13,945 bases of DNA from NCBI GenBank assembly GCA_934454585.1, contig CAKSFP010000046.1, positions 1-13,945 of the forward strand. Direction: 5' to 3'. Every line of letters begins with the position of its first letter. Position 1 is the stretch's first letter. A model generated the notes under the pieces. It was not told the DNA's origin and searched no databases. It saw nothing but the letters and a program-made list of their open reading frames with translations. Below are positions 1-13,945 of this stretch, piece after piece. Source of the stretch: an uncultured Clostridia bacterium. GTDB taxonomy: Bacteria; Bacillota; Clostridia; UMGS1810. The position numbers were made by a program, and so were the translations under genes.

Positions 1-2597
1 CGACTTCTGTTTTTGCAACCGGTGAGCCGGCATATAAAATGGGTTCGTGGTATGATTTGCGTTGGAAACAAAATATTGCAGAGCCTTATGAAGAAGGGAA
101 AACTCCCGAAGATTATCCGAATATAACGGGAACAAGAGTTGTTTCGTATATTACGCACTATTGTTGTCATACCGACGAAACAAATAAAAAAGCGCACAAA
201 AAATCGTTTTATTCAAATTTAACCGAGGATATTATCGATGAACACGCGCTAAACGAAAATGGAATATGTGCGCATTGCGGAAAAGATTTGAGAACGCCGA
301 TTTTCTTAATAGACGCACTTCCCGAAGCAAAGGCAGGAAAATCGTACAATGTGAGAGTCGGTGTAAGCGATGATCCGCCAAGCTTAAAAGATTACATAAA
401 GGCGGTTGTCAGTGAAACAGATGATACGGCATACAGCTTTACGCATGGGCTTACCGGAAAAGCGGATTATAACTGGCGTTACGGTTATTATTATGATATT
501 TCCGGAGTCCCGTCCGAAAGCGGAATGCTTGTCTTCACTCTTTGCGCGGAAAACGAAAACGGTGTAACCAAGAAGACATACACATTAAAAATAAACGAAA
601 GCGATCCGCTTGAAATTACAACGCAAAATAAGTTGGATAATGCAACGGTCGGTTCTGAATATTCGCGCAGTTTATCGGTTAATTCGGATATTGCCGCAAC
701 ATGGAGCGTTGCGGACGGTTCATCGCTTCCGGCAGGGCTTTTGCTTAACCGGGAAACGGGTACAATCGGCGGAACACCGACAGAGAGCGGCAAGTATACC
801 TTTTTTGTGAACGCCGAATGTGCAGACATGACAGCAACCAAGGAGTTTAATATAACGGTTTTGCCGGAGGGCGGCTGTTTGCATGAGGAATTGACATGTA
901 TTCCGGGTACGGCGGCAACATGCATGAAAGACGGAATTGCGGATTATTATTACTGCGGATTTTGTGACAGGTATTATAAGGACGGACAGTGCAAAAATCA
1001 GATTTGGGATATCGGGTATGCGCTGAAATCGGAACTTAAAACCGCCGTTCGGCACACAGACGAAAATAATGACGGCATTTGCGATTTTTGCAGCAAACCC
1101 ATGCCGATATTTGTAAAAGTAACAGACGAAAAGGATATCGTTTACGGCGGTACATATATATTTGTCTCCGAAATCGGCGGTAAATATTATACTCTTGAGG
1201 CGCCGCCGGAGGATGGGAAAACCGGGGAGCGGCGATACCGCAATGTTATGGGTGTTGCCGAGATAGTACCCGGCGCAAACGGCGACTTTGATTTCAACTC
1301 GCTTTGCGCAGCCGATGCTATAATGCTGAAAACGGAATTTGCCGCCGAATGCGGTCCGCTGGACGCAGGAAAACCGCGCTACGGACTGAGTACGGTTTTC
1401 GAAAATGCCCGATACGGACTTATGGGCGATTACAATGTTTACAGTATGTATCCCAACGAACCGGCAAAATACGGTTATCGAATTGCGCTTGAACCGGATA
1501 AATCCGCAAAGATTGCTTCTGTATATAACGAATGCTGGAATATTGGCTCGGACGGAAAATCGGGCGGCAAAGGCGAAGATGTATTGCCATATGGAATATT
1601 ACGCACATTCGATATGAATTATAATGCAGAGAACACAAAATTCATGACGATGCAGACAGAAAGCTATTACAACGGTGAAAAGCAGATTTACAGCGGTGCG
1701 CAAATGACTCAATATCCGGTTTATCTGTACAAAATGACCGTGAGCGGAACGGCCGGCGGAAAGAGCTATACGGTATCCGACAGTCAAAATAATGTTAACA
1801 TATCGGAACTTCCGGGGATGTTTTCCAATTATCAGGGATTGGGACTTTCAAATGTCAGCGGACTTACGAACGCGGTAAATATTGCGTTTGTCACCGATAC
1901 GGTCGCTAATGTGCAGACGGACGCAACCGCACTGGATACAAGAGCATATGCCGATATATCTGTAAACGGGTATACAACCGCAACCGATGAAAAGGGCAAT
2001 GAAATCGCTTCGTCGATTACCTATTCGGTAACTCCTCATTTAAGCATAACCGATGCGGACGGAGCGGTAATTTCAAGTTATGAAATTACCGATGAAAATC
2101 TAAACGGCGCAGAGCTGACAGTTAATTTGCATACCGTCGGCATTGAACCCCGGCAGGTCATCCATTACAAAAAAGACGAAACAAAGGAATTTTTCTATCC
2201 GGCGTACTCCGAACAGGCAACAAACGGCGCAAAAACCTTTGAATATGAATCAGACGGTCAGGGCGGCGGTTTTGTGACAATCCGCATTACAGACTTTTCG
2301 GAGATCAAAATTCTTGCACAAGCCGAGCCGGAAACGGATTATGCAATACGCTATGACGGGAAAACGCTTGCGATAGATTGTAAAGAGGACGGTGCATACA
2401 CAATTGCATTTGCAAGTTATGATACGATCGGTAAAATGACAACGGTCAAAATTGTTGCAACCGGACTTAATGCGGGAGTAAATTCGGATGTTAAAATTCC
2501 GGAGGATGTAACGCTTGAAGCCGGCGACAAAATATTTCTTTGGAAAAATCTCAAGACTCTCAGACCGCTTTGCAGTGCGTATACGGTAAATAAATAA
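1..2597 (+). CDS. Large Cys-containing surface protein with a putative Ig-like (bacterial 'putative Ig domain', PF05345-like) repeat. It is 5'-truncated: the frame is open back to the window edge and the first in-window ATG is at 39.
   Basis: An 852-aa ORF with no stop between position 3 and 39 in frame, so the N-terminus and any signal peptide lie outside the window. The motif 'LPAGLLLNRETGTIGGTPTESGKYTF' (about nt 725-800) is typical of the putative Ig / dystroglycan-type cadherin-like domain. There are repeated CxxC clusters (HYCCH..ICAHCGK; CIPGTAATC..YYCGFCDRYYKDGQC; GICDFCSK). Composition is Thr/Asn/Gly/Tyr-rich, as in extracellular proteins. A weak AT-stem hairpin plus T-tract follows. 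Confidence 0.75.
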   Translation, partial: TSVFATGEPAYKMGSWYDLRWKQNIAEPYEEGKTPEDYPNITGTRVVSYITHYCCHTDETNKKAHKKSFYSNLTEDIIDEHALNENGICAHCGKDLRTPIFLIDALPEAKAGKSYNVRVGVSDDPPSLKDYIKAVVSETDDTAYSFTHGLTGKADYNWRYGYYYDISGVPSESGMLVFTLCAENENGVTKKTYTLKINESDPLEITTQNKLDNATVGSEYSRSLSVNSDIAATWSVADGSSLPAGLLLNRETGTIGGTPTESGKYTFFVNAECADMTATKEFNITVLPEGGCLHEELTCIPGTAATCMKDGIADYYYCGFCDRYYKDGQCKNQIWDIGYALKSELKTAVRHTDENNDGICDFCSKPMPIFVKVTDEKDIVYGGTYIFVSEIGGKYYTLEAPPEDGKTGERRYRNVMGVAEIVPGANGDFDFNSLCAADAIMLKTEFAAECGPLDAGKPRYGLSTVFENARYGLMGDYNVYSMYPNEPAKYGYRIALEPDKSAKIASVYNECWNIGSDGKSGGKGEDVLPYGILRTFDMNYNAENTKFMTMQTESYYNGEKQIYSGAQMTQYPVYLYKMTVSGTAGGKSYTVSDSQNNVNISELPGMFSNYQGLGLSNVSGLTNAVNIAFVTDTVANVQTDATALDTRAYADISVNGYTTATDEKGNEIASSITYSVTPHLSITDADGAVISSYEITDENLNGAELTVNLHTVGIEPRQVIHYKKDETKEFFYPAYSEQATNGAKTFEYESDGQGGGFVTIRITDFSEIKILAQAEPETDYAIRYDGKTLAIDCKEDGAYTIAFASYDTIGKMTTVKIVATGLNAGVNSDVKIPEDVTLEAGDKIFLWKNLKTLRPLCSAYTVNK

Positions 2598-2602
2598 TCG
2601 TA

Positions 2603-2641
2603 ATATCCATTTCGAAAATGTGGATATAAATAAAATTTTTT
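2603..2641 (+). terminator. Weak intrinsic-terminator-like hairpin after the surface-protein gene.
   Basis: A 7-bp stem atatcca (2603-2609) pairs with tggatat (2621-2627) around an 11-nt loop that contains ttcgaa. It is followed by aaataaaatttttt (T-run 2635-2641). The stem is AT-rich, so termination is probably partial. The next gene's RBS follows immediately. Confidence 0.3.
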
Positions 2642-2654
2642 AAGGAGGTTTATT

Positions 2655-3050
2655 ATGAAAGGGAGAAAGTTTTTGAAGGTCACTGGTATTCTGATGATTA
2701 TCGGAGGAGCGTTCGGTATAATCGGAGGTATTATTGCAATGATCGGAGCAGGAGCTTTGGCGGCAGTTCTTGAAACGAGCGCCGGCGGACTTATGCTTGC
2801 AAGTGCTCTGATTCTGGCAAGTGCAGTATTTCAGCTGATTGCCGGAATTATGGGAGTAAAACACTGTGATAACCCCGAAAAGGCACAAAGCTGCCTGGTT
2901 ATGGGTGTCATTGTGGCGATTTTAAGCGTAGCCGGAAATATTATATCAAATGTGCTTGGCAGCGATTTCAATATTTTCAGCTATGCTACCGGCTTGGTTA
3001 TTCCTGTTCTGTACATAATCGGTGCAGTCAAGAACAAAGAGCTTGTATAA
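2655..3050 (+). CDS. Small glycine-zipper integral membrane protein with about 4 TM helices, function unknown.
   Basis: A 131-aa ORF with a strong RBS taaGGAGGtttattATG. It is highly hydrophobic, with repeated GxxxG/GG motifs (IIGGAFGIIGGIIAMIGAG) forming about four predicted TM segments. This resembles small stress-associated Gly-zipper membrane proteins; no specific family is claimed. Confidence 0.7.
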   Translation: MKGRKFLKVTGILMIIGGAFGIIGGIIAMIGAGALAAVLETSAGGLMLASALILASAVFQLIAGIMGVKHCDNPEKAQSCLVMGVIVAILSVAGNIISNVLGSDFNIFSYATGLVIPVLYIIGAVKNKELV

Positions 3051-3064
3051 GTAAATATTCGGCA

Positions 3065-3106
3065 GCTCCCGCCGTCCGGCTTTTTGAGGCGGGAGCGCAG
3101 CCGGAC
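3065..3106 (+). promoter_or_regulatory. Interleaved double stem (H-type pseudoknot topology, or two mutually exclusive hairpins) in the leader of the zinc-ribbon gene.
   Basis: Stem 1 is gctcccgcc (3065-3073) paired with ggcgggagc (3088-3096), 9 bp perfect. Stem 2 is gtccggct (3074-3081) paired with agccggac (3099-3106), 8 bp perfect. The 5' half of stem 2 lies in the loop of stem 1. A T5 run (3081-3085) is in the loop, and the RBS gaggaag plus ATG 3124 lie immediately downstream. Confidence 0.35.
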
Positions 3107-3123
3107 AAAGAGGAAGTGAGACA

Positions 3124-4203
3124 ATGGACATGGTACAGAACTATAAATGCCCTTGCTGCGGCGCTTCGCTGATTTTTCAGAATGAGTCGCTGCACTGCGA
3201 TTCTTGCGGAAATAATTTTGAAATTGACGCAATGCGGCAAATTGACGATGTCGGAGCGCAAATGCAGGGTGAGTCAAAATATGACTGGGAACATTACGAA
3301 CCGAGAAACTATGAGGCAGACGGAGACATTGAACTGGCAAGCTATACCTGCCCTTCCTGCGGTGCGGAAATAACCGGTGACGATACGATGGGGTCGACCG
3401 TCTGTCCTTACTGCGGCGATGCAACGGTGATCAAGGGACAGTTTGAGGGAACGCTGCGCCCTGATTATATCATCCCGTTCAAAATGGAAAAAAAGGCGGC
3501 AATGGAGGCGTTTGAGGCAGATTTCAAAAATGCGCCGTTTTTGCCGGACGAATTTAAGGTTAAGAAGAAAATAGAAGAAATGACAGGCGTTTATGTGCCG
3601 TTTTGGATGTTTGACTGTGACTGCAGTGCTGCAATAACTTACGGTGCACAAATGGTTACAAGTTGGAGTGATTCTAATTATAATTATACAAAAACAGACT
3701 ATTACAGACTTTTCAGAAGCGGCAGTGTGGGTTTTGCCAACATTCCTGTTGACGGTTCAAAAAAAGCGGATGACGCATATATGGAGGCGGTAGAACCTTT
3801 TTGTTATGATGATGCGGTGGAATTTAACGGTGCATATCTTTCGGGATATATGGCGGATAAATATGATGTTTCGGCACAGGAAAGTATAGAACGCGCAAAT
3901 GAGCGTGTAAAAAATTCAACGGTTTCGGTATTTAAGGAGACGACAAGCGGTTACGCTGCGGTGATTCCCGAAAGTACAAAAATCAGCTTCTCCGGCGGCA
4001 AAATACGCTATTCGCTGCTTCCTGTATGGATGCTTAACATCAAATACATGAACAATCTGTATCGGTTTGCAATTAACGGACAGACGGGCAAAGTTGTCGG
4101 TGAATATCCGATTGACAAAAGGAAAAAATGGCGGTATTTCGGAAAAATTGCAGGTTTTGCATATATTGCGGCGGCAGTCATAGCATATTTTCTGCTGCGT
4201 TAG
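3124..4203 (+). CDS. Double zinc-ribbon membrane protein (two N-terminal CPxCG...CxxCG ribbons, a central domain, and a C-terminal TM anchor). It is YdjG-like by architecture.
   Basis: A 359-aa ORF with RBS agaGGAAGtgagacaATG. The ribbons are YKCPCCGAS...HCDSCGN and YTCPSCGAE...VCPYCGD. The C-terminal hydrophobic helix is FGKIAGFAYIAAAVIAYFLL. Its stop is 3 nt before the next start, suggesting translational coupling to the TPM gene. Confidence 0.8.
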   Translation: MDMVQNYKCPCCGASLIFQNESLHCDSCGNNFEIDAMRQIDDVGAQMQGESKYDWEHYEPRNYEADGDIELASYTCPSCGAEITGDDTMGSTVCPYCGDATVIKGQFEGTLRPDYIIPFKMEKKAAMEAFEADFKNAPFLPDEFKVKKKIEEMTGVYVPFWMFDCDCSAAITYGAQMVTSWSDSNYNYTKTDYYRLFRSGSVGFANIPVDGSKKADDAYMEAVEPFCYDDAVEFNGAYLSGYMADKYDVSAQESIERANERVKNSTVSVFKETTSGYAAVIPESTKISFSGGKIRYSLLPVWMLNIKYMNNLYRFAINGQTGKVVGEYPIDKRKKWRYFGKIAGFAYIAAAVIAYFLLR

Positions 4204-4206
4204 GGG

Positions 4207-4992
4207 GTGTGGGTGATGAAAAGAATTATTGTACTTATTGTATCCGTTCTTTGCTTTTTATCAGCACTTCCTGCCTATGCGGAATTTAAGCAGTCCCCTG
4301 TTTCGGATGCGGCAGGGTATTTGACAGAGGAGCAAAATGCGGAACTGACGGAAAGACTTGATGAAATCCGCAGGAAATACAGTTTTGATGTTGCATTCGT
4401 TTCGGAGGACAGACTTTCCTCTTATGACGCACAGAGTGCAGCGGACGATATTTACGATTATGACGGCTATGGTTACGGCAAAAACTATGACGGTATTCTG
4501 TTTTATATAGCAGATTCCGAAAGAAAATATCATTTTTCCGTCTGCGGCAGCGGTGAAACGATATTTAACGAAAACGGTCTTGCCTATCTCGAAAAAAAGA
4601 CTGTTCCGTATTTGAAGAAGGACGACTATTATGCCGCAGTCAAATCATACGCCGATCACACGGAAGAACTTTTGGAGATGGCGGCAGAGGGTAAGCCGTT
4701 CAACAAAACTCAGCACAGCACGAAGTATATCCTGTGTGTGGTTGCCGGGGCGCTTCTTATTCCGCTTGTCCTTGCGTATTTTATGATGCACAAAAAACTC
4801 TGCGCAATGAAAACTGCGGTCAAAGAGGACAATGCCGGCAATTATATGAAGCCGAACAGTATGAATCTTGACTTTTCAAGGGATATATTCCTTTACAGCA
4901 CAGTGGCAAAAACGGAAAAACCGAAATCTGATTCCGGCAGCCATACATCGTCTTCGGGCAGAAGCCATGGAGGAAGGGGCGGAAGCTTTTAA
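4207..4992 (+). CDS. TPM-domain protein (TLP18.3/Psb32/MOLO-1 phosphatase-like; YgcG/YdjH-like) with a signal peptide, a C-terminal TM helix and a Gly/Ser-rich tail.
   Basis: A 261-aa ORF. The N-terminal signal peptide is MKRIIVLIVSVLCFLSALPAYA. The TPM signature reads 'VSDAAGYLTEEQNAELTERLDEIRRKYSFDVAFV...DGILFYIADSERKYHFSVCGSGETI...'. The TM segment is ILCVVAGALLIPLVLAYFMM and the C-terminus is SGRSHGGRGGSF, like the Gly-rich tails of YgcG-type TPM proteins. Confidence 0.85.
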   Translation: MWVMKRIIVLIVSVLCFLSALPAYAEFKQSPVSDAAGYLTEEQNAELTERLDEIRRKYSFDVAFVSEDRLSSYDAQSAADDIYDYDGYGYGKNYDGILFYIADSERKYHFSVCGSGETIFNENGLAYLEKKTVPYLKKDDYYAAVKSYADHTEELLEMAAEGKPFNKTQHSTKYILCVVAGALLIPLVLAYFMMHKKLCAMKTAVKEDNAGNYMKPNSMNLDFSRDIFLYSTVAKTEKPKSDSGSHTSSSGRSHGGRGGSF

Positions 4993-5018
4993 TAAAAAAT
5001 TTTAAGGAGGAGAAAATT

Positions 5019-5897
5019 ATGGGATTCGGTGATTTTTTTAAGAACATTTTTGGCAAGAAAAATTGTGCGTTATGCGGCAAGGAATGCGGCATGATGCACC
5101 GTTCAAAGATCAAGAACAAAGAATTTCTTTGTTCTGATTGCGGAAATTTGTGTTCAAAATATATCAGATTGAGCGAACTCACATTAGATGAAATCAAGGG
5201 GCATATAGAGTATATGAAGCGGCAGAACAGACTTTATGAGGAGGTTTACTCAAAAGAGGGCAAAAAAAGCACCTGCCCGTCAACTGTTAAGGAGATGGGA
5301 ATTGAGTTCTGTGACGACCTGGGAATGTTCCGCATTGTATACAGAAGCGATACGAGCAGAGGTAAGCTCAAGGAGCTTTTCCGCTACGATCAGGTGGCGG
5401 GCTATGAGGAGTACATAGAGGAAACGCCTGCAACCGAGCAGGGAAAAAATCCTGAATTTAAGGAATGCGGATTAAAAATCAAGCTTTTGGGCGGAAATAT
5501 GAGTAAGGTGAATACAGATAATAAAAAAGGACTTCGTCCGCATCCGTATATTAAACGGGAAATTAAAGTCTGCTTCAGCAAAAAAAATCGGTCTGATATG
5601 CAGTATGTACTTAATGCAAAGCGCCATTTTGATTATATTTTCGGTGTTCATGATGACGAAAGAGGCTTATTCGGCTTCGGCAGAAGCAAGGCGGAAAAAA
5701 GAGAGGATGCGGCAGCGATCGGAATGGCGGCTGCATTCGGTACGGCGTTTAAGGCGGCAACAAAGGGAGAGGACTCCATAACGGATGAGGAAAAGGAAAG
5801 ACTCAGGGAAGGCATGGATGCGTTAAACGATGCTGCAACAGGCGGCATGGCGGTTTACACAAGACGCGCAGATGAAGCGGAACAAAGAATCAAGTAA
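5019..5897 (+). CDS. Cytoplasmic N-terminal zinc-ribbon protein with an Ala/Gly/Met-rich C-terminal segment, function unknown.
   Basis: A 292-aa ORF with RBS ttaaGGAGGagaaaattATG. The single ribbon is CALCGKEC...CSDCGNLC. There is no signal peptide or TM helix. The C-terminal region AAAIGMAAAFGTAFKAATKG is amphipathic and low-complexity. Confidence 0.7.
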   Translation: MGFGDFFKNIFGKKNCALCGKECGMMHRSKIKNKEFLCSDCGNLCSKYIRLSELTLDEIKGHIEYMKRQNRLYEEVYSKEGKKSTCPSTVKEMGIEFCDDLGMFRIVYRSDTSRGKLKELFRYDQVAGYEEYIEETPATEQGKNPEFKECGLKIKLLGGNMSKVNTDNKKGLRPHPYIKREIKVCFSKKNRSDMQYVLNAKRHFDYIFGVHDDERGLFGFGRSKAEKREDAAAIGMAAAFGTAFKAATKGEDSITDEEKERLREGMDALNDAATGGMAVYTRRADEAEQRIK

Positions 5898-5912
5898 CGG
5901 GAGGTCTGACAT

Positions 5913-7097
5913 ATGAAAAGAATACTATTGTTGACTCTCATACTGCTGACATTTAGCTGTACGATTGTCTGTGCGGAATGGGAAACATTCAAATCGGCAG
6001 ACGGAGTGTATGAATATACCGGTGATGGGGTAATTACCGCTTATTATGGTGATGAAATCGCAGATTTTCCGGCGGAAATAGACGGTACAAAAATTCATGA
6101 AATAGGCGTTATGGCATGCCTTGACCTCGATATTATATTCATATCAATTGATGAGGGAATCGAAACGATCAACACAAATGCTTTTGAGGGCTGCAATGCC
6201 GAATATGCATATATTCCCGCAACCGTGAAGGATGTCGGGGAACGCGCCTTTGCAAATTGTGTAAATCTTGAGGAAGTTACAATATGCTCGGAAAACACAG
6301 TTTTTGAACATGATGCCTTTACAGGTACGGGGTATATTAAGTTTGATATACCGTGCACGGCGGACGAACAAGCGATGTACGAAAAAATATCCGCTGCAAA
6401 GGGAGACGACTATTTTGAATTTTCAACCATGCACACCGCCCTTGCTGAGAGTATGGAGGAAAAGGACATATACGGGGCAAACATGATTTACTGCAACGAC
6501 TGCGGTTTTAAGGGAAGTAAGTATATGGAAGCAACGCCGCTGCCGTTTTTCGATGTATCGGCGGATGCTTGGTATTATCCTTATGTGCAGACATCTTATG
6601 AATTCGGCATTATAAGAGGAAAAAGCGAAACTGAATTTGATCCGGATGCCGGTCTGACCTGTGCGGAAGCGGCAAAGATTGCAGCCGTAATTCATGACAA
6701 AAACCGTTATGACCGTGAGGAGCAGGGTTTTGTCCTTACCGGTGAAAACTGGTATGACGCTTATGTGAGCTATTGCTATGACAACGGAATAATCGAGGAT
6801 TATATTGTTTTTGATTGGGATAAAAACGCAACGCGTGCGCAGATGGCATATCTGTTTTCGCGGTGCGACACCGATCCGTATTTCATAAATGATGTTCCTA
6901 TAACCGATATTCCCGATGTTTATGATACAACGCCGTTTGCTTATGAAATTTTGGACCTTTACAATAAGGGAATTGCTGTGGGAAGTGATGAATTTATGGC
7001 ATACTATCCCGATTCACAGGTTAAACGGAGCGAAGCTGCAACGCTGATTTCGAGAATTCTTTGCTTTGATATGAGGATCGAATTGCCGAAAGGGTGA
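5913..7097 (+). CDS. Secreted cell-wall protein with BspA-type leucine-rich repeats followed by two SLH (S-layer homology) domains.
   Basis: A 394-aa ORF with RBS gGGAGGtctgacatATG and signal peptide MKRILLLTLILLTFSCTIVCA. The LRR_5-like repeats read 'INTNAFEGCNAEYAYIPATVKDVGERAFANCVNLEEVTI'. The SLH-like segments are 'FFDVSADAWYYPYVQTSYEFGIIRG...' and 'FINDVPITDIPDVYDTTPFAYEILDLYNKGIAVG...'. Confidence 0.8.
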   Translation: MKRILLLTLILLTFSCTIVCAEWETFKSADGVYEYTGDGVITAYYGDEIADFPAEIDGTKIHEIGVMACLDLDIIFISIDEGIETINTNAFEGCNAEYAYIPATVKDVGERAFANCVNLEEVTICSENTVFEHDAFTGTGYIKFDIPCTADEQAMYEKISAAKGDDYFEFSTMHTALAESMEEKDIYGANMIYCNDCGFKGSKYMEATPLPFFDVSADAWYYPYVQTSYEFGIIRGKSETEFDPDAGLTCAEAAKIAAVIHDKNRYDREEQGFVLTGENWYDAYVSYCYDNGIIEDYIVFDWDKNATRAQMAYLFSRCDTDPYFINDVPITDIPDVYDTTPFAYEILDLYNKGIAVGSDEFMAYYPDSQVKRSEAATLISRILCFDMRIELPKG

Positions 7098-7111
7098 TTA
7101 AGGTGAGGCTG

Positions 7112-7642
7112 ATGAAAGTAATTGCGATATTTGCGGTTATTGCCGGTCTTTTCGGATGCAGGGCTCCCGGAGAAAAACCTTTTATGCTGGACGGACCGGG
7201 CATGGTGTATGTTGACAGTGAGCATCGGACAGAATACGCAAATACTCTTGCGTTCGATGAAATTGATGATTATCCCTATTGGGCGGTTGCATATCTCGGA
7301 AATGGAGATGAGGGAAAAAGCGCGGCAACGGTATACATAGAAAAGCTTTTTTCGGAGCTTTCCGAGGAAAAACGCCGGGCAATCGGTCATATTGATTACG
7401 GCGGCGAAAAATGGTATCTTGTTATTCCGCGGTACGGGGATGAAAACGAGCTGATCCAAAACGGCGATGAGAAAAATTCGCAAAAAGTATATGACGGTAC
7501 GCCCTATATCATAAACTGCGGCGGCGATGTGCAAATTTATATCGTCATACGCGGCGGACACAAAATCACGCTTGATACGGATGAAAACGGCAGACTGATA
7601 TGTACACCTGATATATGGGATATAACAGAATATAAAGAATAA
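7112..7642 (+). CDS. Small lipoprotein, function unknown.
   Basis: The track starts at GTG 7094, but ATG 7112 is preceded by RBS aaGGTGAGGctg and gives MKVIAIFAVIAGLFGC, a signal peptide with a lipobox (LFGC). It is 177 aa from 7112 and starts 15 nt after the upstream stop. Confidence 0.7.
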   Translation: MKVIAIFAVIAGLFGCRAPGEKPFMLDGPGMVYVDSEHRTEYANTLAFDEIDDYPYWAVAYLGNGDEGKSAATVYIEKLFSELSEEKRRAIGHIDYGGEKWYLVIPRYGDENELIQNGDEKNSQKVYDGTPYIINCGGDVQIYIVIRGGHKITLDTDENGRLICTPDIWDITEYKE

Positions 7643-7662
7643 AATTTTGAGAGGAGAACATT

Positions 7663-8985
7663 ATGGGACTTTTGAAAGCAGGAGCAGGGGCGCTTGGCGG
7701 TGTTCTGGCTGATCAATGGAGAGAATTTTTCTACTGCGAAAGTTTAGATGCCGACACACTTGTGGCAAAAGGCGAAAAACGGGTCGGAAAAAGAAGCTCC
7801 AACAAAAAAGGTGATGACAACATTATTTCAAACGGCTCAATCATTTCGATAAATGAGGGTCAGAGCATGATTATCGTGGAATCGGGCAAAATTGTTGAAT
7901 TTTGCGCCGAGGCCGGGGAGTTTGTTTATGATAATTCAACAGAGCCGAGCATTTTCTGCGGCAGTCTGGGAGAAACGGTTAAGCAAAGCTTTGCGCAGGT
8001 GGGCAAGCGTTTTACTTTCGGAGGCGAACCGGGCAAGGATCAGAGGGTTTATTATTTTAACACAAAAGAAATAACGGGAAATAAATTCGGGACTTCTTCA
8101 CCTGTGCCTTTCAGGGTAACAATAGATGAGTCTATGAATTATAAGCTGTCTGTGGATTTAAGATGCAACGGCGTGTATTCCTATAAAATAGCCGATCCTG
8201 TTATGTTTTATACAAATGTAAGCGGCAATGTGGAATATGTTTACAGCCGTTCGGAAATCGACGAAATGTTAAAGAGTGAACTGTTGGATGCTCTCAGACC
8301 CGCATTTGCACAAATTTCGGCAATGAAAATAATGTATTCCGAAATACCGGCGCACACAAAGGAAGTTACAAAGGCTCTTTCCGAGGAGCTAAAAGTTGAG
8401 TGGAAGGAAAAACGCGGAATTGAGCTTTTTGCCGTAAGCATTAACGGCGTGTCTATCCCGGAGGATCAGAGAAAGAAGATTACCGAGTGGGAGGAAAACA
8501 TTATGACAACCGACCCGAACATTGCGGCGGCGCGCATTGTCGGCGGCCAGACAGACGCCATGAGGACGGCTGCGGCAAACGAGGGCGGAATGGGAGCAAT
8601 GGGTGGATTTTTCGGAATGAATATGGCGCAAAATGCAGGCGGTATGAATGCGGGCAATCTTTTTGCGATGGGTCGGCAAGAGCAGCCTCAACAACAGGCA
8701 CAGCCGCCACAAGCGTCGGGCTGGAGCTGCGAATGCGGTCAGACGGGCAATACCGGAAAATTCTGCACAAATTGCGGAAAGCCGCAGCCGGTATCGGACG
8801 GATGGACCTGTTCGTGCGGTGCAACAAACAAGGGCAAATTCTGCCAGAACTGCGGAAATCCAAAGCCGGCGGGCGCACCGTTGTATAAATGCGACAAATG
8901 CGGCTGGGAGCCGCAGGATCCGCAAAACCCGCCGAAATTCTGTCCGGAATGCGGCGACATATTTGATGATAATGATAAACAATAA
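7663..8985 (+). CDS. SPFH/band-7 (flotillin-like, COG4260 / YdjI-like) protein with a Gly/Met/Ala/Gln-rich linker and three tandem C-terminal zinc ribbons.
   Basis: A 440-aa ORF with RBS gaGAGGAGaacattATG. The N-terminal region (MGLLKAG...IVESGKIVEFCAEAGEFVYDN...YYFNTKEITGNKFGTSSPVPFRV) is the pattern of YdjI/COG4260 'virion-core-protein-like' SPFH proteins. The low-complexity linker is GGMGAMGGFFGMNMAQNAGGMNAGN...QPQQQAQPPQ. The ribbons are WSCECG...FCTNCG, WTCSCG...FCQNCG and YKCDKCG...FCPECG. Confidence 0.85.
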   Translation: MGLLKAGAGALGGVLADQWREFFYCESLDADTLVAKGEKRVGKRSSNKKGDDNIISNGSIISINEGQSMIIVESGKIVEFCAEAGEFVYDNSTEPSIFCGSLGETVKQSFAQVGKRFTFGGEPGKDQRVYYFNTKEITGNKFGTSSPVPFRVTIDESMNYKLSVDLRCNGVYSYKIADPVMFYTNVSGNVEYVYSRSEIDEMLKSELLDALRPAFAQISAMKIMYSEIPAHTKEVTKALSEELKVEWKEKRGIELFAVSINGVSIPEDQRKKITEWEENIMTTDPNIAAARIVGGQTDAMRTAAANEGGMGAMGGFFGMNMAQNAGGMNAGNLFAMGRQEQPQQQAQPPQASGWSCECGQTGNTGKFCTNCGKPQPVSDGWTCSCGATNKGKFCQNCGNPKPAGAPLYKCDKCGWEPQDPQNPPKFCPECGDIFDDNDKQ

Positions 8986-9007
8986 AAACTCGGAGGATTC
9001 AAAGATT

Positions 9008-10165
9008 ATGAAAAAATTATTGACATTGATTTTAACAATAGTAATGATATTTACACTTGCATCGTGCGGAGGGGACAAAACAGGAAGCAGCGGAGCTAAA
9101 AAGATTGACTATGCAAATATGACAGAGGATGATTTGATAAAAAAGTTTATCAAAGATGAGCAGAACATAACCTTGGATGAATTTGTAGATCTTGCTTCCA
9201 CATATTCATACACAACAATCAATGATAAGCTTGAACTTGATGAAAATATAACAGACAAAGCAATTAAAAAGCTTAAGGACAACAAGGCAACGCTCCCCGC
9301 GGCAAAGGAGTATGTCGAGCCGCTTTTGAAAAGTGATTCACCGCAGGTAAGAGGCTATGCTTTTTCAAACATCGCCACATTTTTAGGGGCAAGTGATGCT
9401 CATGTGGCTCAAGCAAAGGAGATTTTGAAAAACGAAAAGGAGCCTTATGTTATTAAATGTGCGGTAAGGGCTCTTGGCAATGAAGGCGGCAAGGATGCGG
9501 AAATCGGCAAATTCCTGCTTGACGCGGCAAAGAATGAAAACGCAGTTGTAAGAAGACAGGCGGCGGTTTCTCTCGGAAGCACATGGAACAAAACCCTTGA
9601 CGGCGCAGTGGATGCAGAAATCGAGCTGATGAAGGATTCGGATACCGAGGTTCGCAAAGCTGCATATGAGTATGCCGGCCTGCTCGGTGATGACAGGGTG
9701 GTTGCGCCTATCTCTGAAATGCTGAAAAACGAGGCTGACGCAGACCTCCATTCAAGCGGTGTAAGAGGACTTGTTTGGCTGTGGTACGATTATCCGTCGC
9801 ACGAAAATACAAGCGAAGCGGCATACAGGGCTACAATAGACTATTTCAAAACCACACCGGGCAGCAACAAGGTTCCCGCATGGGCAGCCGTGACAAGCTT
9901 TACAAACAAATCCGAGAAGAACTATGCATCATGGAGAGAAAGAGCAACATATTTCAATACGGATGAGCTTTATGAAGTTATGCTCGGACTTGTAAAGAAC
10001 GAAAACTTGAGCCACCTGGCACGCGGCTATGCCTGCAAGCCTGTTGCGGTGCACTGCACAAAAGAGCAGTTTGAGGCTTTTGGCGAGGTTGTAAACGCTC
10101 TTACCGATAAGAATGCGAAATTTATACAGGATGAGTATCAAAATCAGGCAAAAAAGCTTGAATAG
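9008..10165 (+). CDS. HEAT-repeat (PBS-lyase-type) lipoprotein.
   Basis: The track ORF is open from 8648, but that would overlap the SPFH gene. ATG 9008 has RBS cGGAGGattcaaagattATG and gives MKKLLTLILTIVMIFTLASCGG, a lipobox. It is 385 aa. Repeated HEAT-like units include 'VRGYAFSNIATFLG', 'IKCAVRALGNEGG', 'VVRRQAAVSLGS', 'EVRKAAYEYAGLLGD'. Confidence 0.75.
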   Translation: MKKLLTLILTIVMIFTLASCGGDKTGSSGAKKIDYANMTEDDLIKKFIKDEQNITLDEFVDLASTYSYTTINDKLELDENITDKAIKKLKDNKATLPAAKEYVEPLLKSDSPQVRGYAFSNIATFLGASDAHVAQAKEILKNEKEPYVIKCAVRALGNEGGKDAEIGKFLLDAAKNENAVVRRQAAVSLGSTWNKTLDGAVDAEIELMKDSDTEVRKAAYEYAGLLGDDRVVAPISEMLKNEADADLHSSGVRGLVWLWYDYPSHENTSEAAYRATIDYFKTTPGSNKVPAWAAVTSFTNKSEKNYASWRERATYFNTDELYEVMLGLVKNENLSHLARGYACKPVAVHCTKEQFEAFGEVVNALTDKNAKFIQDEYQNQAKKLE

Positions 10166-10186
10166 CCACAGAACGGAGGAATGACT

Positions 10187-11029
10187 ATGAAAAAAATAAT
10201 CGGCGTTATACTGATTATAGGAGGCATATCCTTTGCTTTGCTTGCTGTAAAAGCTCTTGTGTCAGCGCCGCAGTCCTACGAGAAAATCAGAGCTGCGGCA
10301 ACGATTGAGGACGGCAAGGTCACTCCCGAAAATGAGGGGAAGCTTGTGGTTGTTTCGGGAACTCTTAAACCGGCAGAACAGCTCCAGGACCCGATAACGG
10401 GCGTTAAGCTTCCCGGAGTAACGGCGAAAAGAACGGTTTGGACTTATAAGCAGGATACCGGCAGCGGTGATGAAAAAGTGTGGGACTGGTACCCGGAGAA
10501 TACCGACTACAGCGAAAAGGCGAATTTTGGAATAAACGCCGAGATACTTACATCAACCATGCTTGCCGCGCCTACTTTGCTCGGTGAGTTTAAGGTGGAG
10601 AGCGAGCTGCTTAATCCCCTTATAAGAAACACCGAATTTACGCAATATGACGAGCAAAGTCTTAATGCGGGCTGGAAGGTGCTTTCGGGCGGAAAAGAAA
10701 GCCGCTACTGCGTTTCGAAAGAGAATAATTTGCCAAAGAAAACAAAGGGTATGTACTCAACGACGGGATATGGATCTCAAAAAATATCCTACGGCATCGT
10801 TTCGCCCGACGATCCGCTCGAATATACGATTATCGGCGTACAAAAAGGCGATACCCTGATAAAAAGCGAAGATGTAGATTCGGTTACAACCATTAAGGGA
10901 ATTATGACGGCACAAGAGTTTGCCGAGGAGAACAAAAAAGGCGTGCGCGGTGGTTCGATTTTCGGCATAATAGCCGGTATACTGCTTGCAGTAATCGGCG
11001 TGGGTATGCTGGCATTTCGGAGGCAGTAA
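10187..11029 (+). CDS. Bitopic/hairpin membrane protein with N- and C-terminal TM helices flanking a large (probably extracytoplasmic) domain, function unknown.
   Basis: GGAGGA (10175-10180) abuts ATG 10181 with zero spacing, so ATG 10187 (MKKIIGVILIIGGISFALLAV) is the likely start. It is 280 aa. The C-terminal TM is GGSIFGIIAGILLAVIGVGMLAF. Confidence 0.7.
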   Translation: MKKIIGVILIIGGISFALLAVKALVSAPQSYEKIRAAATIEDGKVTPENEGKLVVVSGTLKPAEQLQDPITGVKLPGVTAKRTVWTYKQDTGSGDEKVWDWYPENTDYSEKANFGINAEILTSTMLAAPTLLGEFKVESELLNPLIRNTEFTQYDEQSLNAGWKVLSGGKESRYCVSKENNLPKKTKGMYSTTGYGSQKISYGIVSPDDPLEYTIIGVQKGDTLIKSEDVDSVTTIKGIMTAQEFAEENKKGVRGGSIFGIIAGILLAVIGVGMLAFRRQ

Positions 11030-11031
11030 AA

Positions 11032-11613
11032 ATGAAAATAGACAAAAAAGTATTATCGGGCGGCGGAACATATATTTCAAGAGTGGCAATTGCAAGGCTT
11101 ACATTAAAGAAACACATACAAATGATTATAGGCGGATTCTTCACGGCGGTTTTTCTGTTTGGAATTATTTCGGGGGTTACGGGGTACAACGAAAAACTTC
11201 GTGATAACCTGATTACCAATGTAGTCATGATTGTTCCGTCCGCACTCCTTTTGTTAAACGGCATTAAAAACGGCACAATGGCGGCGCGTGCATATCGCTA
11301 TAACTCGATCTTCATGTGCGATATTGACGGCACGGTGACAATCAATGAGCTTGCAAAGCAATCCGGAAAACCGCCGTTCAAGGTACTTTCAGAACTTGAT
11401 AAGCTTTTCGGAAAAGGGGTATTCTGTGGATGTACTCTGCAAAAGCAAGGATCTCCGTGTGTTATTCTTTCGGGCAGAGAAGGCAGTAAAACAAGCTTTG
11501 TTAATGTTGTGTGTGAAAAATGCAACGGAACAACAAGAATCCGTGCCGGAAGCTCCGGTAAATGCGAGTATTGCGGAAATGCAATCTCAGACCGCAATAC
11601 CGGAGGAGTGTAA
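11032..11613 (+). CDS. Membrane protein (2 TM) with a cytoplasmic C-terminal zinc ribbon.
   Basis: A 193-aa ORF starting 3 nt after the previous stop (...cagTAAaaATG). The TM helices are MIIGGFFTAVFLFGIISGV and ITNVVMIVPSALLLL. The C-terminal motifs are CEKCNGT...CEYCGNA and CGC..SPC. Confidence 0.7.
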   Translation: MKIDKKVLSGGGTYISRVAIARLTLKKHIQMIIGGFFTAVFLFGIISGVTGYNEKLRDNLITNVVMIVPSALLLLNGIKNGTMAARAYRYNSIFMCDIDGTVTINELAKQSGKPPFKVLSELDKLFGKGVFCGCTLQKQGSPCVILSGREGSKTSFVNVVCEKCNGTTRIRAGSSGKCEYCGNAISDRNTGGV

Positions 11614-11641
11614 AATATCACATCAAAAGGAGGATATAAAT

Positions 11642-12391
11642 GTGAAAAGGACAAGACAATTTTTTTCTGTTTTACTGACACTGGCAATGCTGCTTACGCT
11701 CGTGCCCGCTGCGGTAAATGCGGCAGGCACATACCCGGCTACCTCTGCGGTTTCCGTTGACGGCAAGCTTGAAAGAGAAGCAGGCGAAAATGTCGGCAAT
11801 TATAAAATTCTCCTCGGCACGCTGGCTCTTAAAGACAACGGAGCCTTCAAAGCATCAAACTATATACTAAGCCTTGATACGACCGCAGTGTACTTTGAGA
11901 TCAAAAAAGCTCCTGCTCCGTCCGCTCCCACAGGGTTAAGCGGTATGAAGGGTAAAACGCTTGCAACCGTTTCTCTCACAGGCGGCTGGGCTTGGGCTGA
12001 CGACACGACAGTTATGAACACTGCCGGAACGCAGACCTTTAAGGCAAATTACACAGATACAACAGGCAATTATGAAAATGCGACAAATGTTGATGTAACA
12101 GTAGAAGTTATTGATAAAACGAATGTCAGCGCAAGCATCACCTTCGCCGACGGCGAGCTGACATATAACGGCGCAGGGCAGGCTTATGAAACCGCAAGCA
12201 TTTCCGGCATTACGGCAGGCGCTAACCCCGGCTGGACTTATGCTTATGTACCCTCCGGCACAGGCTCGCTCTATGCTTCGGGCAAGCCGCAGAACGCAGG
12301 CACATACACCGTAACGGCAACCTATGAGGATGATGACAATTACGGTACAAAGAGCGCCGTGCCCGAAATCAAAAAGGCTGAAACAAAATAA
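11642..12391 (+). CDS. Secreted protein with MBG-like (YGX-type) adhesin repeats. It starts at GTG.
   Basis: The track ORF runs from 11345 but overlaps the upstream gene. GTG 11642 is preceded by aaaGGAGGAtataaa and gives (M)KRTRQFFSVLLTLAMLLTLVPAAVNA, a signal peptide. It is 249 aa. The segments 'TYNGAGQAYE...NAGTYTVTATYEDDDNY...' and 'AVYFEIKKA' match MBG-domain patterns. A strong terminator follows. Confidence 0.6.
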   Translation: MKRTRQFFSVLLTLAMLLTLVPAAVNAAGTYPATSAVSVDGKLEREAGENVGNYKILLGTLALKDNGAFKASNYILSLDTTAVYFEIKKAPAPSAPTGLSGMKGKTLATVSLTGGWAWADDTTVMNTAGTQTFKANYTDTTGNYENATNVDVTVEVIDKTNVSASITFADGELTYNGAGQAYETASISGITAGANPGWTYAYVPSGTGSLYASGKPQNAGTYTVTATYEDDDNYGTKSAVPEIKKAETK

Positions 12392-12437
12392 CACTAAATA
12401 AAGATTTCCGAACAGGAAATTGGTGACGGCACAGCAT

Positions 12438-12487
12438 GCCGCCCGGCACAGAGGCAAAACGCCTTTGTTGCCGGGCGGCTTTTTTTG
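12438..12487 (+). terminator. Strong rho-independent terminator closing the 12-gene cluster.
   Basis: An 11-bp perfect GC-rich stem gccgcccggca (12438-12448) pairs with tgccgggcggc (12469-12479). The inner loop holds a mini-hairpin (aggc aaaac gcct). T7 (12480-12486) follows immediately. Confidence 0.85.
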
Positions 12488-12517
12488 ACTAAAAGGACAA
12501 ACGGGCGGATATGCTTA

Positions 12518-12538
12518 CGGCGATTAACGCCTGTTGCC
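12518..12538 (+). repeat. Left copy of a roughly 19-bp direct repeat flanking the recombinase gene (cggcgatTaacgCCTgttgcc). The right copy is at 13898-13916 (tcggcgatAaacgGttgcc).
   Basis: cggcgattaacg (12518-12529) matches cggcgataaacg (13899-13910) at 11/12 positions. Both are followed by gttgcc, with 3 extra nt in the left copy. A second partial copy, gccgataacgc, is at 12536-12546. Both copies are intergenic, one on each side of the recombinase. Confidence 0.35.
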
Positions 12539-12628
12539 GATAACGCAATATATCTGAACTATGTGTTTAATCACGATGAAGAAATTTGTAAAATCCTCTA
12601 TTGATAATCAAACCCTGTTATTTGCTGT

Positions 12629-12659
12629 TTGTGAATACTTTTAGGGAATATGATAAAAT
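12629..12659 (+). promoter_or_regulatory. Candidate sigma-70-type promoter for the recombinase gene.
   Basis: A -35-like ttgtga (12629-12634) and an extended -10 tgaTAAAAT (12651-12659) with a 19-nt spacer lie in a 30% GC region. An RBS gaaagg sits 10 nt before ATG 12684. Recurring TGATAA(A)AT motifs at 12602, 12651 and 12677 complicate the assignment. Confidence 0.25.
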
Positions 12660-12683
12660 ATATTTCTGAAAGGTCGTGATAAA

Positions 12684-13529
12684 ATGCAAGAAAGAAAAAT
12701 AACAAATGAACTTATAAAGAATTTTGAACTATATCTGTATGATGAAGAACGGAGCAACAACACGACAGAAAAATATATGCGTGATATTCGATTCTTCCGT
12801 GAATGGTTGAAAAGCAAAAGCATTGATAAATCGGTTGTTATCGAATACAAAAAAGAGCTTTGCGAAAGATATGCGGTAAGAAGCGTAAATTCCATGTTAT
12901 CTTCTGTCAACGCATTTTTTGTATTTGTTGGTTGGCATGATTTGAAAGTGAAAACATTGAAAATTCAAAGGTGTATATTTTCGGATAAGTCAAGGGAATT
13001 GTCAAAGACAGAATATGAACGGCTGCTCAATGCGGCGCAGAACCGACGAAACGATCGGCTCTATTACCTCATGCAGACTATGGCGAGCACAGGCATCCGA
13101 GTGTCGGAAGTGAAATATGTCACCTGCGAGGCTGTGCGCAACGGCATAGCAATAATAAATTGCAAAGGAAAGATACGACGGGTTTTTCTGCCGAGAGAAC
13201 TCTGCAAAATGCTGAAAGGATATATATGCAGGCAAAAAATCACCGGCGGCGCAGTGTTCGTCACGCGCAGCGGCAAACCGCTCGACCGCTGTGCCATATG
13301 GCGTATGCTAAAAGATTTATGCGACGGGGCACATGTGGACAGAAAAAAAGTTTTTCCGCACAATTTTCGTCACCTGTTCGCAAGGACTTATTATTCACTG
13401 CAGAAAGATATTGTGCGCCTGGCGGACATACTGGGACATTCGAGCATAGAGACCACCCGCATCTACACTATGGAGAGCGGCAGTGAGCACATGAGACAGT
13501 TGCAAAAACTCGGCTTGCTAAGGTGCTGA
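12684..13529 (+). CDS. Tyrosine site-specific recombinase/integrase (XerC/D-like phage-integrase family). It is small and has no arm-binding domain.
   Basis: A 281-aa ORF. The N-terminal SAM-like core-binding region reads TEKYMRDIRFFREWL. The catalytic residues fit the R..H-x-x-R..H..Y pattern: ...TGIRVSEV..., HNFRHLFA, GHSSIETTRIYT. GC is about 32% over the first 300 nt and about 50% for the rest. Confidence 0.9.
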   Translation: MQERKITNELIKNFELYLYDEERSNNTTEKYMRDIRFFREWLKSKSIDKSVVIEYKKELCERYAVRSVNSMLSSVNAFFVFVGWHDLKVKTLKIQRCIFSDKSRELSKTEYERLLNAAQNRRNDRLYYLMQTMASTGIRVSEVKYVTCEAVRNGIAIINCKGKIRRVFLPRELCKMLKGYICRQKITGGAVFVTRSGKPLDRCAIWRMLKDLCDGAHVDRKKVFPHNFRHLFARTYYSLQKDIVRLADILGHSSIETTRIYTMESGSEHMRQLQKLGLLRC

Positions 13530-13544
13530 ACGGCGAAATAAAAA

Positions 13545-13584
13545 AGACGCGCACGGCGTCTGCAACATAATAAGAATTATGTTG
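13545..13584. repeat. Two adjacent hairpins right after the recombinase stop: a GC hairpin and a 9-bp AT-rich perfect inverted repeat.
   Basis: The GC hairpin agacgc-gcacg-gcgtct (13545-13561) is preceded by an A-run, which is terminator-like when read on the minus strand. The AT inverted repeat is caacataat (13563-13571) - aaga - attatgttg (13576-13584). Confidence 0.5.
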
Positions 13585-13683
13585 TGGTTAAAAACACAAT
13601 TTACATAAGTATAACACACATTTTACCGTTTGTCAATTATTTGCGACCAATTTCGTCAATTTTTTCAACTTCAAAGCATAGTA

Positions 13684-13724
13684 AAACAGACCAATGTGTT
13701 TTCTTGGCAAGCATTGGTCTGTTT
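13684..13724. repeat. 13-bp perfect inverted repeat with a 15-nt spacer.
   Basis: aaacagaccaatg (13684-13696) is the exact reverse complement of cattggtctgttt (13712-13724). GACCAAT also occurs at 13647-13653, and direct repeats (T)GTCAATT(A)TTT occur at 13631-13643 and 13654-13666 upstream. Confidence 0.6.
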
Positions 13725-13860
13725 GCGATGCAAAAATACTTTTAGTTGCCATTTGTTTATCGTTTATTTTTTCATTACCTATCCTTAAACCGATTGCAAA
13801 ATTTCCTAAAATATTAATTGTGGTTACAGCTTATGAAAAATCACTTCACGAATCCCTCCA

Positions 13861-13945
13861 CCGCCTACGGCGGTCCCGTTCTCACCTGCCGGTTCGGTCG
13901 GCGATAAACGGTTGCCACAGGCAACCATCGCCCCTTTAGCAAGGG
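13861..13945. other. GC-rich block of consecutive or nested hairpins, truncated by the window end. Its identity is unresolved.
   Basis: The hairpins are ccgcc-tac-ggcgg (13861-13873) and gccg-gttcggt-cggc (13888-13902). The outer stem ggcgat/atcgcc (13900-13905 with 13927-13932) encloses gttgcc-acag-ggcaac (13911-13926). GC is far above the surrounding AT-rich DNA. It contains the right copy of the direct repeat. Confidence 0.3.

Follow-up and report, generated by a model that had tools for sequence, protein, structure and literature searches.

In Bacillus subtilis the genes ydjG, ydjH and ydjI follow pspA in the pspA-ydjGHI operon, which belongs to the sigma-W regulon (Scholz et al. 2021, PMC8581546; Ravi et al. 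2024, PMC11237479). Genetic and two-hybrid data revealed YdjG-YdjH and YdjH-YdjI interactions and a dependence of the SPFH protein, YdjI, on its anchors for membrane localisation; mutants of ydjG and ydjH are defective in wall synthesis and shape, which mutants of pspA and ydjI are not (PMC8581546). The trio is described as coupled to pspA in Firmicutes (PMC8581546, PMC11237479, PMC9239133). In the literature consulted on pspA-ydjGHI we found no description of a pspA-free Clostridial form or of an association with DUF4428 or SLH proteins, nor did we find a paper on Band_7_1/COG4260 proteins in Clostridia. Here we analyse a stretch of 13,945 nt from an uncultured Clostridia bacterium (assembly GCA_934454585.1, contig CAKSFP010000046.1, positions 1 to 13,945; hereafter the window). 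We consider it likely that the window carries a Clostridial version of the YdjG/YdjH/YdjI membrane-scaffold module, which is unlinked from pspA, expanded in this lineage and probably tied to wall-anchored partners. Loci used for comparison are referred to by L numbers.

The three genes in question encode a zinc-ribbon (ZnR) protein, a TPM-domain protein and an SPFH protein:

3124-4203, + strand: ZnR protein, YdjG homologue, 359 amino acids (BLASTP, invariant cysteines, transmembrane segment)
4216-4992, + strand: TPM protein, YdjH-like, 258 amino acids (PF04536); alternative GTG start at 4207
7663-8985, + strand: Band_7_1 SPFH protein, YdjI-like, 440 amino acids (PF13421)

For pairwise BLASTP we used translations of the B. 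subtilis reference locus (L096), which is annotated PspA_IM30 - Zn_Ribbon_TF - TPM_phosphatase - Band_7_1. A YdjI sequence was used purely as bait to reach this locus, by way of the Bacillus cluster P0272, which is 98% identical to it. The ZnR protein aligns with YdjG over its full length, central domain included (32% identity over 357 amino acids, E=3e-71). It contains two N-terminal four-cysteine ribbons of the CxxC...CxxC type (nt 3148-3207 and 3349-3414), and C9, C12, C25, C28, C76, C79, C94 and C97 are invariant among 50 diverse homologues; Pfam matches to zinc-ribbon families are weak. A single C-terminal hydrophobic helix at residues 340-358 (nt 4141-4197) corresponds to helix 332-358 of the AlphaFold2 model (m3dd34d1d86cf, pLDDT 90.5), and the model has a conserved alpha/beta central domain. 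This domain, which is modelled with confidence, contains very long beta-strands of 24-30 residues, and its comparison with the PDB gave no significant match. The YdjG-type family is large, with 6400 clusters at 50% identity at E<=0.001.

The TPM protein matches PF04536 with E=1.2e-24 (87.2 bits against a cut-off of 22.1; domain at nt 4300-4665). Its hydrophobic segments, a signal or transmembrane segment at residues 4-22 and a second transmembrane segment at residues 172-190 (the latter at nt 4729-4785), lie almost exactly where those of YdjH do (8-26 and 171-189). Identity to YdjH is 20% over the full length (E=1e-6). The tail is rich in Gly and Ser and ends in GGSF, and the two proteins share a GSF C-terminus; a G[KSR]F ending is present in 54 of 65 full-length (at least 230 amino acids) neighbouring TPM homologues. 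The C-terminus as a whole (window 4900-4992; homologues from L016-L095) nearly always reads SSSGxxHGGxGG[KS]F and looks like a conserved docking motif. ATG 4216, called as the start on 10 of 10 contigs, is more likely the TPM start codon than GTG 4207, which results in a gap of 12 nt after the ZnR stop codon. Of the ZnR/TPM translational coupling put forward earlier, the closeness of the two genes thus stands, while coupling itself is plausible.

The SPFH protein is recognised by PF13421 (Band_7_1, E=3.7e-17, 63.1 bits against a cut-off of 24) and by Band_7 (E=1.6e-6). It has no transmembrane segment. A low-complexity linker and six CxxC-type knuckles, which make up three C-terminal ribbons (nt 8728-8952), are present. 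The alignment with YdjI (24% identity over 344 amino acids, E=2e-9) spans the SPFH domain, the Gly/Met/Gln-rich linker and the ribbon. Three ribbons, where the initial annotation expected one or two and YdjI has one, are no addition of this lineage: three is the commonest count in Clostridial orthologues (28 of 49), followed by four (15/49) and two (5/49). The last ribbon, LYKCDKCGWEPEDPxNPPKFCPECGD, and the acidic tail after it (xFDDND; window 8860-8985) are kept in 43 of 47 full-length homologues (L016-L095), and this ribbon, too, looks like a conserved docking motif.

Since all three proteins are homologous to their B. subtilis counterparts and the hydrophobic segments of the TPM protein match those of YdjH, we assign each of them to its family. 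Judged by sequence, they are genuine homologues of YdjG, YdjH and YdjI with the same architecture, and the initial annotation, which had likened them to the trio by architecture, was right on all three.

We investigated how widely this arrangement is distributed by a profile scan with the ZnR protein, taking one genome per species, which yielded 80 Clostridia loci with ZnR identities of 41-90%. A TPM gene follows within 700 nt of ZnR in 73 of the 80 loci. The SPFH gene adjoins the pair in 59 (53 times immediately before ZnR and 6 times immediately after TPM) and is set apart from it by other genes in 6 more; it is absent in spite of adequate flanks in 5, and in the remaining 10 the contig ends too close to tell. 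Conserved across Clostridia as a three-gene cassette, the trio is far from a chance arrangement. Clustering of all neighbouring open reading frames (ORFs) around the trio gave no further conserved family, and a Pfam census of 140 of them found nothing recurrent except ABC, sigma-70, DUF4428 and DUF6935. Among the closest relatives (ZnR identity at least 57%), a bare ZnR-TPM-SPFH arrangement is common (L019-L022, L187-L190). This is the ydjGHI order of B. subtilis; more distant Clostridia have SPFH-ZnR-TPM, the usual order in the class. The window arrangement is an opened version of the ancestral ZnR-TPM-SPFH order.

The initial annotation had also reported that pspA is missing from the window. 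This was confirmed: no window protein matches PF04012 in Pfam, nor do the 10 kb upstream and downstream of the array in Pfam-annotated neighbourhoods, nor the annotated neighbourhoods of L001, L011, L098 and L184-L190. In addition, all six-frame ORFs of at least 60 amino acids were searched by phmmer with filters off. An E. coli PspA probe gave no matches; the main probe was the real B. subtilis PspA of L096, for which the E. coli protein served as a positive control (E=1.3e-15). In the window, 15 loci of its lineage and the 80 species loci (1.1 Mb) the best match had E=6.8. In a further 93 loci (1.15 Mb) only L182/L183 scored, which hold a Bacillus-type pspA-ZnR-TPM-Band_7_1 operon from a metagenome-assembled genome (MAG) labelled Epulopiscium and thus act as an internal positive control. 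The absence of pspA is not special to this locus, as had been supposed, all 80 Clostridial loci being alike in this respect. The Clostridial cassette is unlinked from pspA.

As pspA could sit elsewhere in the genome, its local absence is uninformative on PspA-independence. The module could work exactly as in B. subtilis, being dependent on PspA and recruiting it from a gene elsewhere in the chromosome, a possibility we take seriously yet regard as doubtful. PspA foci in B. subtilis require YdjI and YdjG/H, and even there pspA is set off by a terminator from the ydj genes that follow it (PMC8581546). For other abbreviated band-7 operons, Ravi et al. propose cooperation with a PspA whose gene lies at a different site (PMC11237479), and the Epulopiscium-labelled operon combines pspA with all three genes. 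These points have to be set against the count of loci with pspA within ~10 kb (none of 80 at the species level), the different C-terminus of the Clostridial SPFH proteins (3-4 ribbons versus one) and the wall-synthesis defects of ydjG/H mutants, which pspA and ydjI mutants do not share. Because these defects have no counterpart in pspA mutants, the two anchors appear to have a role beyond PspA recruitment.

The version of the module present in the window is embedded in a larger array. The window is 99.98% identical to positions 2969-16913 of a 105-kb human-gut metagenome contig (L003), and its nearest named relatives are uncultured Clostridia, Oscillospiraceae and Monoglobaceae MAGs. All real genes of the window lie on the + strand. 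Apart from the trio, its features are as follows:

39-2597, + strand: He_PIG surface protein (PF05345), C-terminal 852 amino acids of a 1314-amino-acid protein that is full length in L001 and L003
2655-3050, + strand: 131-amino-acid Gly-rich protein with four predicted transmembrane segments, directly upstream of the ZnR gene
5019-5897, + strand: DUF4428 zinc-ribbon protein without transmembrane segments (Pfam)
5913-7097, + strand: LRR_5 (BspA-type) and SLH secreted cell-wall-binding protein (PF13306 E=4e-13, PF00395 E=2e-13)
7112-7642, + strand: small lipoprotein with an LFGC lipobox; alternative GTG start at 7094
9008-10165, + strand: HEAT-repeat lipoprotein with a LASC lipobox (PF13646 E=9e-17)
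10187-11029, + strand: TMEM43-like bitopic membrane protein with N- and C-terminal transmembrane segments (PF07787 E=2e-6)
11032-11613, + strand: TM-ZnR protein with two transmembrane (TM) segments and a C-terminal zinc ribbon (CxxC...CxxC, read from the translation)
11642-12391, + strand: MBG-like secreted repeat protein, last gene of the run (sub-threshold MBG_3/MBG_2)
12460-12479, + strand: terminator-like hairpin with a T-run after it, at the end of the co-directional run
12684-13529, + strand: tyrosine recombinase, 281 amino acids

The tight co-directional run reported at the outset could be confirmed for 3124-12391. Its genes are separated by gaps of 2-28 nt, each is preceded by a Shine-Dalgarno-like sequence, and the hairpin after 12391 is the single +-strand terminator-like site in any intergenic gap. 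This packing is suggestive of an operon. The He_PIG gene, which is cut by the window edge, is a lineage-specific neighbour outside the core, and the 131-amino-acid gene is likewise lineage-specific: beyond the window's own species group, only 2 of the 80 species loci have it. At the other end of the run, 11642 is the probable start of the MBG-like gene, whose match to MBG in Pfam (E=0.002) falls below threshold. For the ten window proteins scanned, NCBIfam returned nothing informative.

The three genes said to separate TPM from SPFH are indeed there and encode the DUF4428, LRR_5-SLH and small lipoprotein products. The DUF4428 protein is predicted to consist of an N-terminal zinc ribbon, a PH-like beta-sandwich core and a C-terminal helical bundle; structural matches (PH/PTB-like, helical bundle) were weak only. 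An LRR-SLH gene occupies the same place between TPM and SPFH in L016, L017 and L185, with the lipoprotein gene also lying in this interval in L017. The lipoprotein, which has no Pfam or NCBIfam match, is conserved in the same three loci and missing from a strain variant (L109). L185, where ZnR identity is 79% and the flanks are different, preserves the same array from two double-zinc-ribbon (DZR) genes through a 191-amino-acid TM-ZnR gene, with a HEAT gene after SPFH and co-located counterparts of the TMEM43-like (280 amino acids) and TM-ZnR (191 amino acids) proteins. By tblastn, homologues of these two proteins were found in metagenome loci of the window group at 84-91% (TMEM43-like) and 82-94% (TM-ZnR).

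Related genes occur in other orders elsewhere. Two SLH proteins, DUF4428, DUF3298 and others stand between TPM and SPFH in L184; DUF4428, HEAT and SLH genes come after TPM in L186, where HEAT is thus inside the cassette; and L098 has the order SPFH-DUF4428-X-ZnR-TPM. In lineages further removed from the window, a DUF4428 gene adjoins ZnR, directly upstream of it or between SPFH and ZnR, in 6 of the 80 species loci in addition to L098. Conversely, 84 loci anchored on DUF4428 contain SPFH in 74 cases, ZnR in 69 and TPM in 68, though no more than about three lineages are behind them. The inserted genes are only partly incidental. The earlier proposal of wall-anchored partners thus gains some support from SLH, DUF4428 and HEAT, which recur in the cassettes of L185, L184, L186 and L017; the outer genes He_PIG and MBG are not conserved with the trio.

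Zinc-ribbon proteins are numerous in the array (two DZR, ZnR, DUF4428, SPFH and TM-ZnR). From their sequences, these proteins, the TPM tail and the last SPFH ribbon may be cytoplasmic interaction elements. A DUF6935 protein (PF22043, E=1e-52) is encoded one to three genes downstream of TPM in L035, L047, L059, L066, L070 and L098, and a member of the same cluster lies ~5 kb upstream on the opposite strand in L034; it is a further candidate accessory of the cassette. Directly upstream of ZnR, L184 (8413-9405) encodes a single 330-amino-acid protein with HisKA_7TM and GerE-type domains, and L186 (5633-9869) a 772-amino-acid HisKA_7TM protein together with a separate 215-amino-acid Response_reg+GerE regulator. 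These genes may regulate the cassette in the two loci.

Several observations concern the start of the array and its expression. Upstream of the window (L001:896-5473; L185:4926-9863), the array opens with two small DZR proteins of 127 and 100 amino acids, followed by a protein of 1298-1387 amino acids without a Pfam match. The 415-bp intergenic region before the DZR genes is probably the site of the promoter. The window contains no match to the B. subtilis sigma-W consensus, which we take to be TGAAAC-N16/17-CGTA; the array promoter probably lies upstream of the window, and motifs of Clostridial extracytoplasmic function (ECF) sigma factors may differ. The 73-nt gap between the 131-amino-acid gene and ZnR contains a stable hairpin (3058-3105; folding free energy -28.7 kcal/mol, z = -2.3) with no U-tract after it, which may serve in processing or stabilisation or act as a partial attenuator. 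An Rfam scan of the window for riboswitches and leader RNAs found no family. The 10-kb flank upstream of the array carries an ABC binding protein, the two small DZR proteins and the 1298-amino-acid protein, and the downstream flank a helicase and a polysaccharide biosynthesis locus.

Two variable features were seen at the downstream end. A 380-bp segment of the MBG-like gene (11770-12148) is present in the window, L003 and L013 and absent in L001, L002, L005 and L007; this indel is copy-number variation of a repeat domain. Between the tyrosine recombinase and the helicase and polysaccharide biosynthesis locus, 519 bp are enclosed by the arms of a perfect 22-nt inverted repeat, ACATAATAAGAATTATGTTGTG (left arm, window 13565-13586; right arm, beyond the window end at L011:11423-11444). 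Contigs L001 and L005 break off precisely at the left and the right arm, respectively, a pattern known from invertible segments; no inversion was seen, every spanning contig having the same orientation. The 519-bp segment is a candidate phase-variable promoter.

By analogy with B. subtilis, the Clostridial module would work as follows. The TPM protein would be bitopic, with its TPM domain outside the membrane and the Gly/Ser tail inside, and the two-ribbon ZnR protein would be tail-anchored on the cytoplasmic face. Together they would form a membrane receptor that recruits the soluble Band_7_1 SPFH protein. Oligomerisation of the latter at the membrane would create a scaffold that organises or protects a membrane patch and influences wall synthesis nearby. 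The lineage of the window has opened the ZnR-TPM-SPFH order and added a cytoplasmic DUF4428/PH-like protein, an SLH wall-bound LRR protein and lipoproteins, probably tying the module to cell-wall-anchored partners as a trans-envelope assembly. A much more specific version, to which we give little credence at present, is that in one clade of gut Clostridia a PspA-free YdjGHI-type scaffold is the core of an assembly that tethers membrane microdomains to the wall or S-layer, with the DUF4428/PH-like adaptor and zinc-ribbon proteins inside and SLH proteins, HEAT and small lipoproteins outside.

A number of points weigh against a scaffold module with wall-anchored partners. This mechanism would be carried over to the Clostridial members from a single organism, B. 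subtilis; the TPM and SPFH proteins are just 20-24% identical to YdjH and YdjI; and the role of the TPM domain is unsettled in the literature (PMC11237479). Four of the closest relatives (L187-L190) have a bare trio with no accessory genes at all. Compared with window 3096-9078, relatives at 84-92% nucleotide identity lack ZnR and most of TPM (L104, L105, L124), and one (L121) lacks ZnR, TPM, the lipoprotein and SPFH, the flanking genes being kept in each case; in L121 and L124, ~500-800 bp of unrelated sequence stands in place of ZnR-TPM. Since close relatives delete parts or all of the trio and keep its flanks, the module is dispensable and its coupling to neighbours loose. The 12-kb run is therefore not the single obligatory unit that the initial annotation made of it.

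The same strain variants, in which ZnR-TPM, the lipoprotein or the whole trio is deleted or replaced, are in line with the locus being a variable surface-protein island subject to gene shuffling, where the trio is a bystander functionally unlinked to the envelope genes. So are the 380-bp indel in the last gene, the tyrosine recombinase and candidate invertible element just downstream, the lack of conservation of the He_PIG and MBG genes with the trio, and the fact that most Clostridial cassettes are bare trios. We nevertheless think this explanation unlikely, though it deserves to be kept in mind. DUF4428, SLH and HEAT genes turn up within or next to the cassette, in varied order, in five or more separate lineages, which is hard to account for by chance insertion, and nearly all of the 84 DUF4428-anchored loci carry the trio, even if about three lineages contribute them. 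An anti-phage defence system or mobile-element cargo that makes use of the SPFH protein, to which the downstream recombinase and the reported presence of DUF4428 at the N-terminus of certain homologues of the SNIPE defence nuclease (bioRxiv 10.1101/2025.11.03.685801) might point, is highly improbable: the cluster has no nuclease, ATPase or other effector domain in Pfam or NCBIfam, the cassette occupies varied chromosomal housekeeping contexts across species, and in the present case it is flanked by the gene of an ABC-transporter binding protein and by a polysaccharide biosynthesis locus. PADLOC, run on the ten proteins of 39-11613 (HEAT, MBG-like and recombinase excluded), returned one sub-significant match (E=0.009), and a defence system was rejected.

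The YdjGHI module has been studied in B. subtilis only, as an accessory of PspA; in Clostridia the cassette is widespread, its sequences forming thousands of clusters. A Clostridial cassette unlinked from pspA, its gene order and ribbon numbers, and the defects of ydjG and ydjH mutants suggest that the trio is an independent membrane or envelope module, of which the B. subtilis form is a derived, PspA-coupled version. The recurrent DUF4428, SLH and HEAT partners are concrete candidates for the connections of the module. Specialists in SPFH proteins and envelope stress gain a useful lead from this; the mechanism itself is unsurprising.

Compared with known systems, the locus is closest to pspA-ydjGHI. 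In both, the protein with two ribbons carries a YpeB/PepSY-like domain and a transmembrane anchor, the TPM protein combines two hydrophobic segments with a Gly-rich tail that ends in GSF, and the Band_7_1 SPFH protein is soluble and has a low-complexity linker plus zinc-ribbon sequence at its C-terminus. The window differs in having no pspA within 10 kb, three genes inserted between TPM and SPFH, three SPFH ribbons instead of the one of YdjI, and no match to the B. subtilis sigma-W motif, with the array promoter probably upstream of the window. Flotillins FloT/FloA (YuaG/YqfA) and the YqiK/YuaF-type band-7 operons resemble it in featuring an SPFH membrane scaffold with a proposed function in membrane organisation or stress protection. 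However, flotillins bind the membrane by themselves through a transmembrane helix or hairpin and combine Band_7 with a flotillin domain, whereas the window SPFH protein has no transmembrane segment, has Band_7_1 as its best Pfam match and presumably relies on the TPM and ZnR anchors. With no hydrophobic segment and Band_7_1 scoring above Band_7, its identity as a classical flotillin (FloT/FloA) was rejected; YdjI is itself found in fluid membrane regions and not in ordered ones (PMC8581546). Finally, the PF04536 proteins E. coli YgcG, plant TLP18.3/Psb32 and mycobacterial Rv2345 share with the window protein an extracytoplasmic TPM fold, a transmembrane helix and a Gly-rich tail. They are stand-alone or occur in other contexts, while the Clostridial TPM gene is fixed beside a YdjG-type gene, as seen in 73 of 80 loci.

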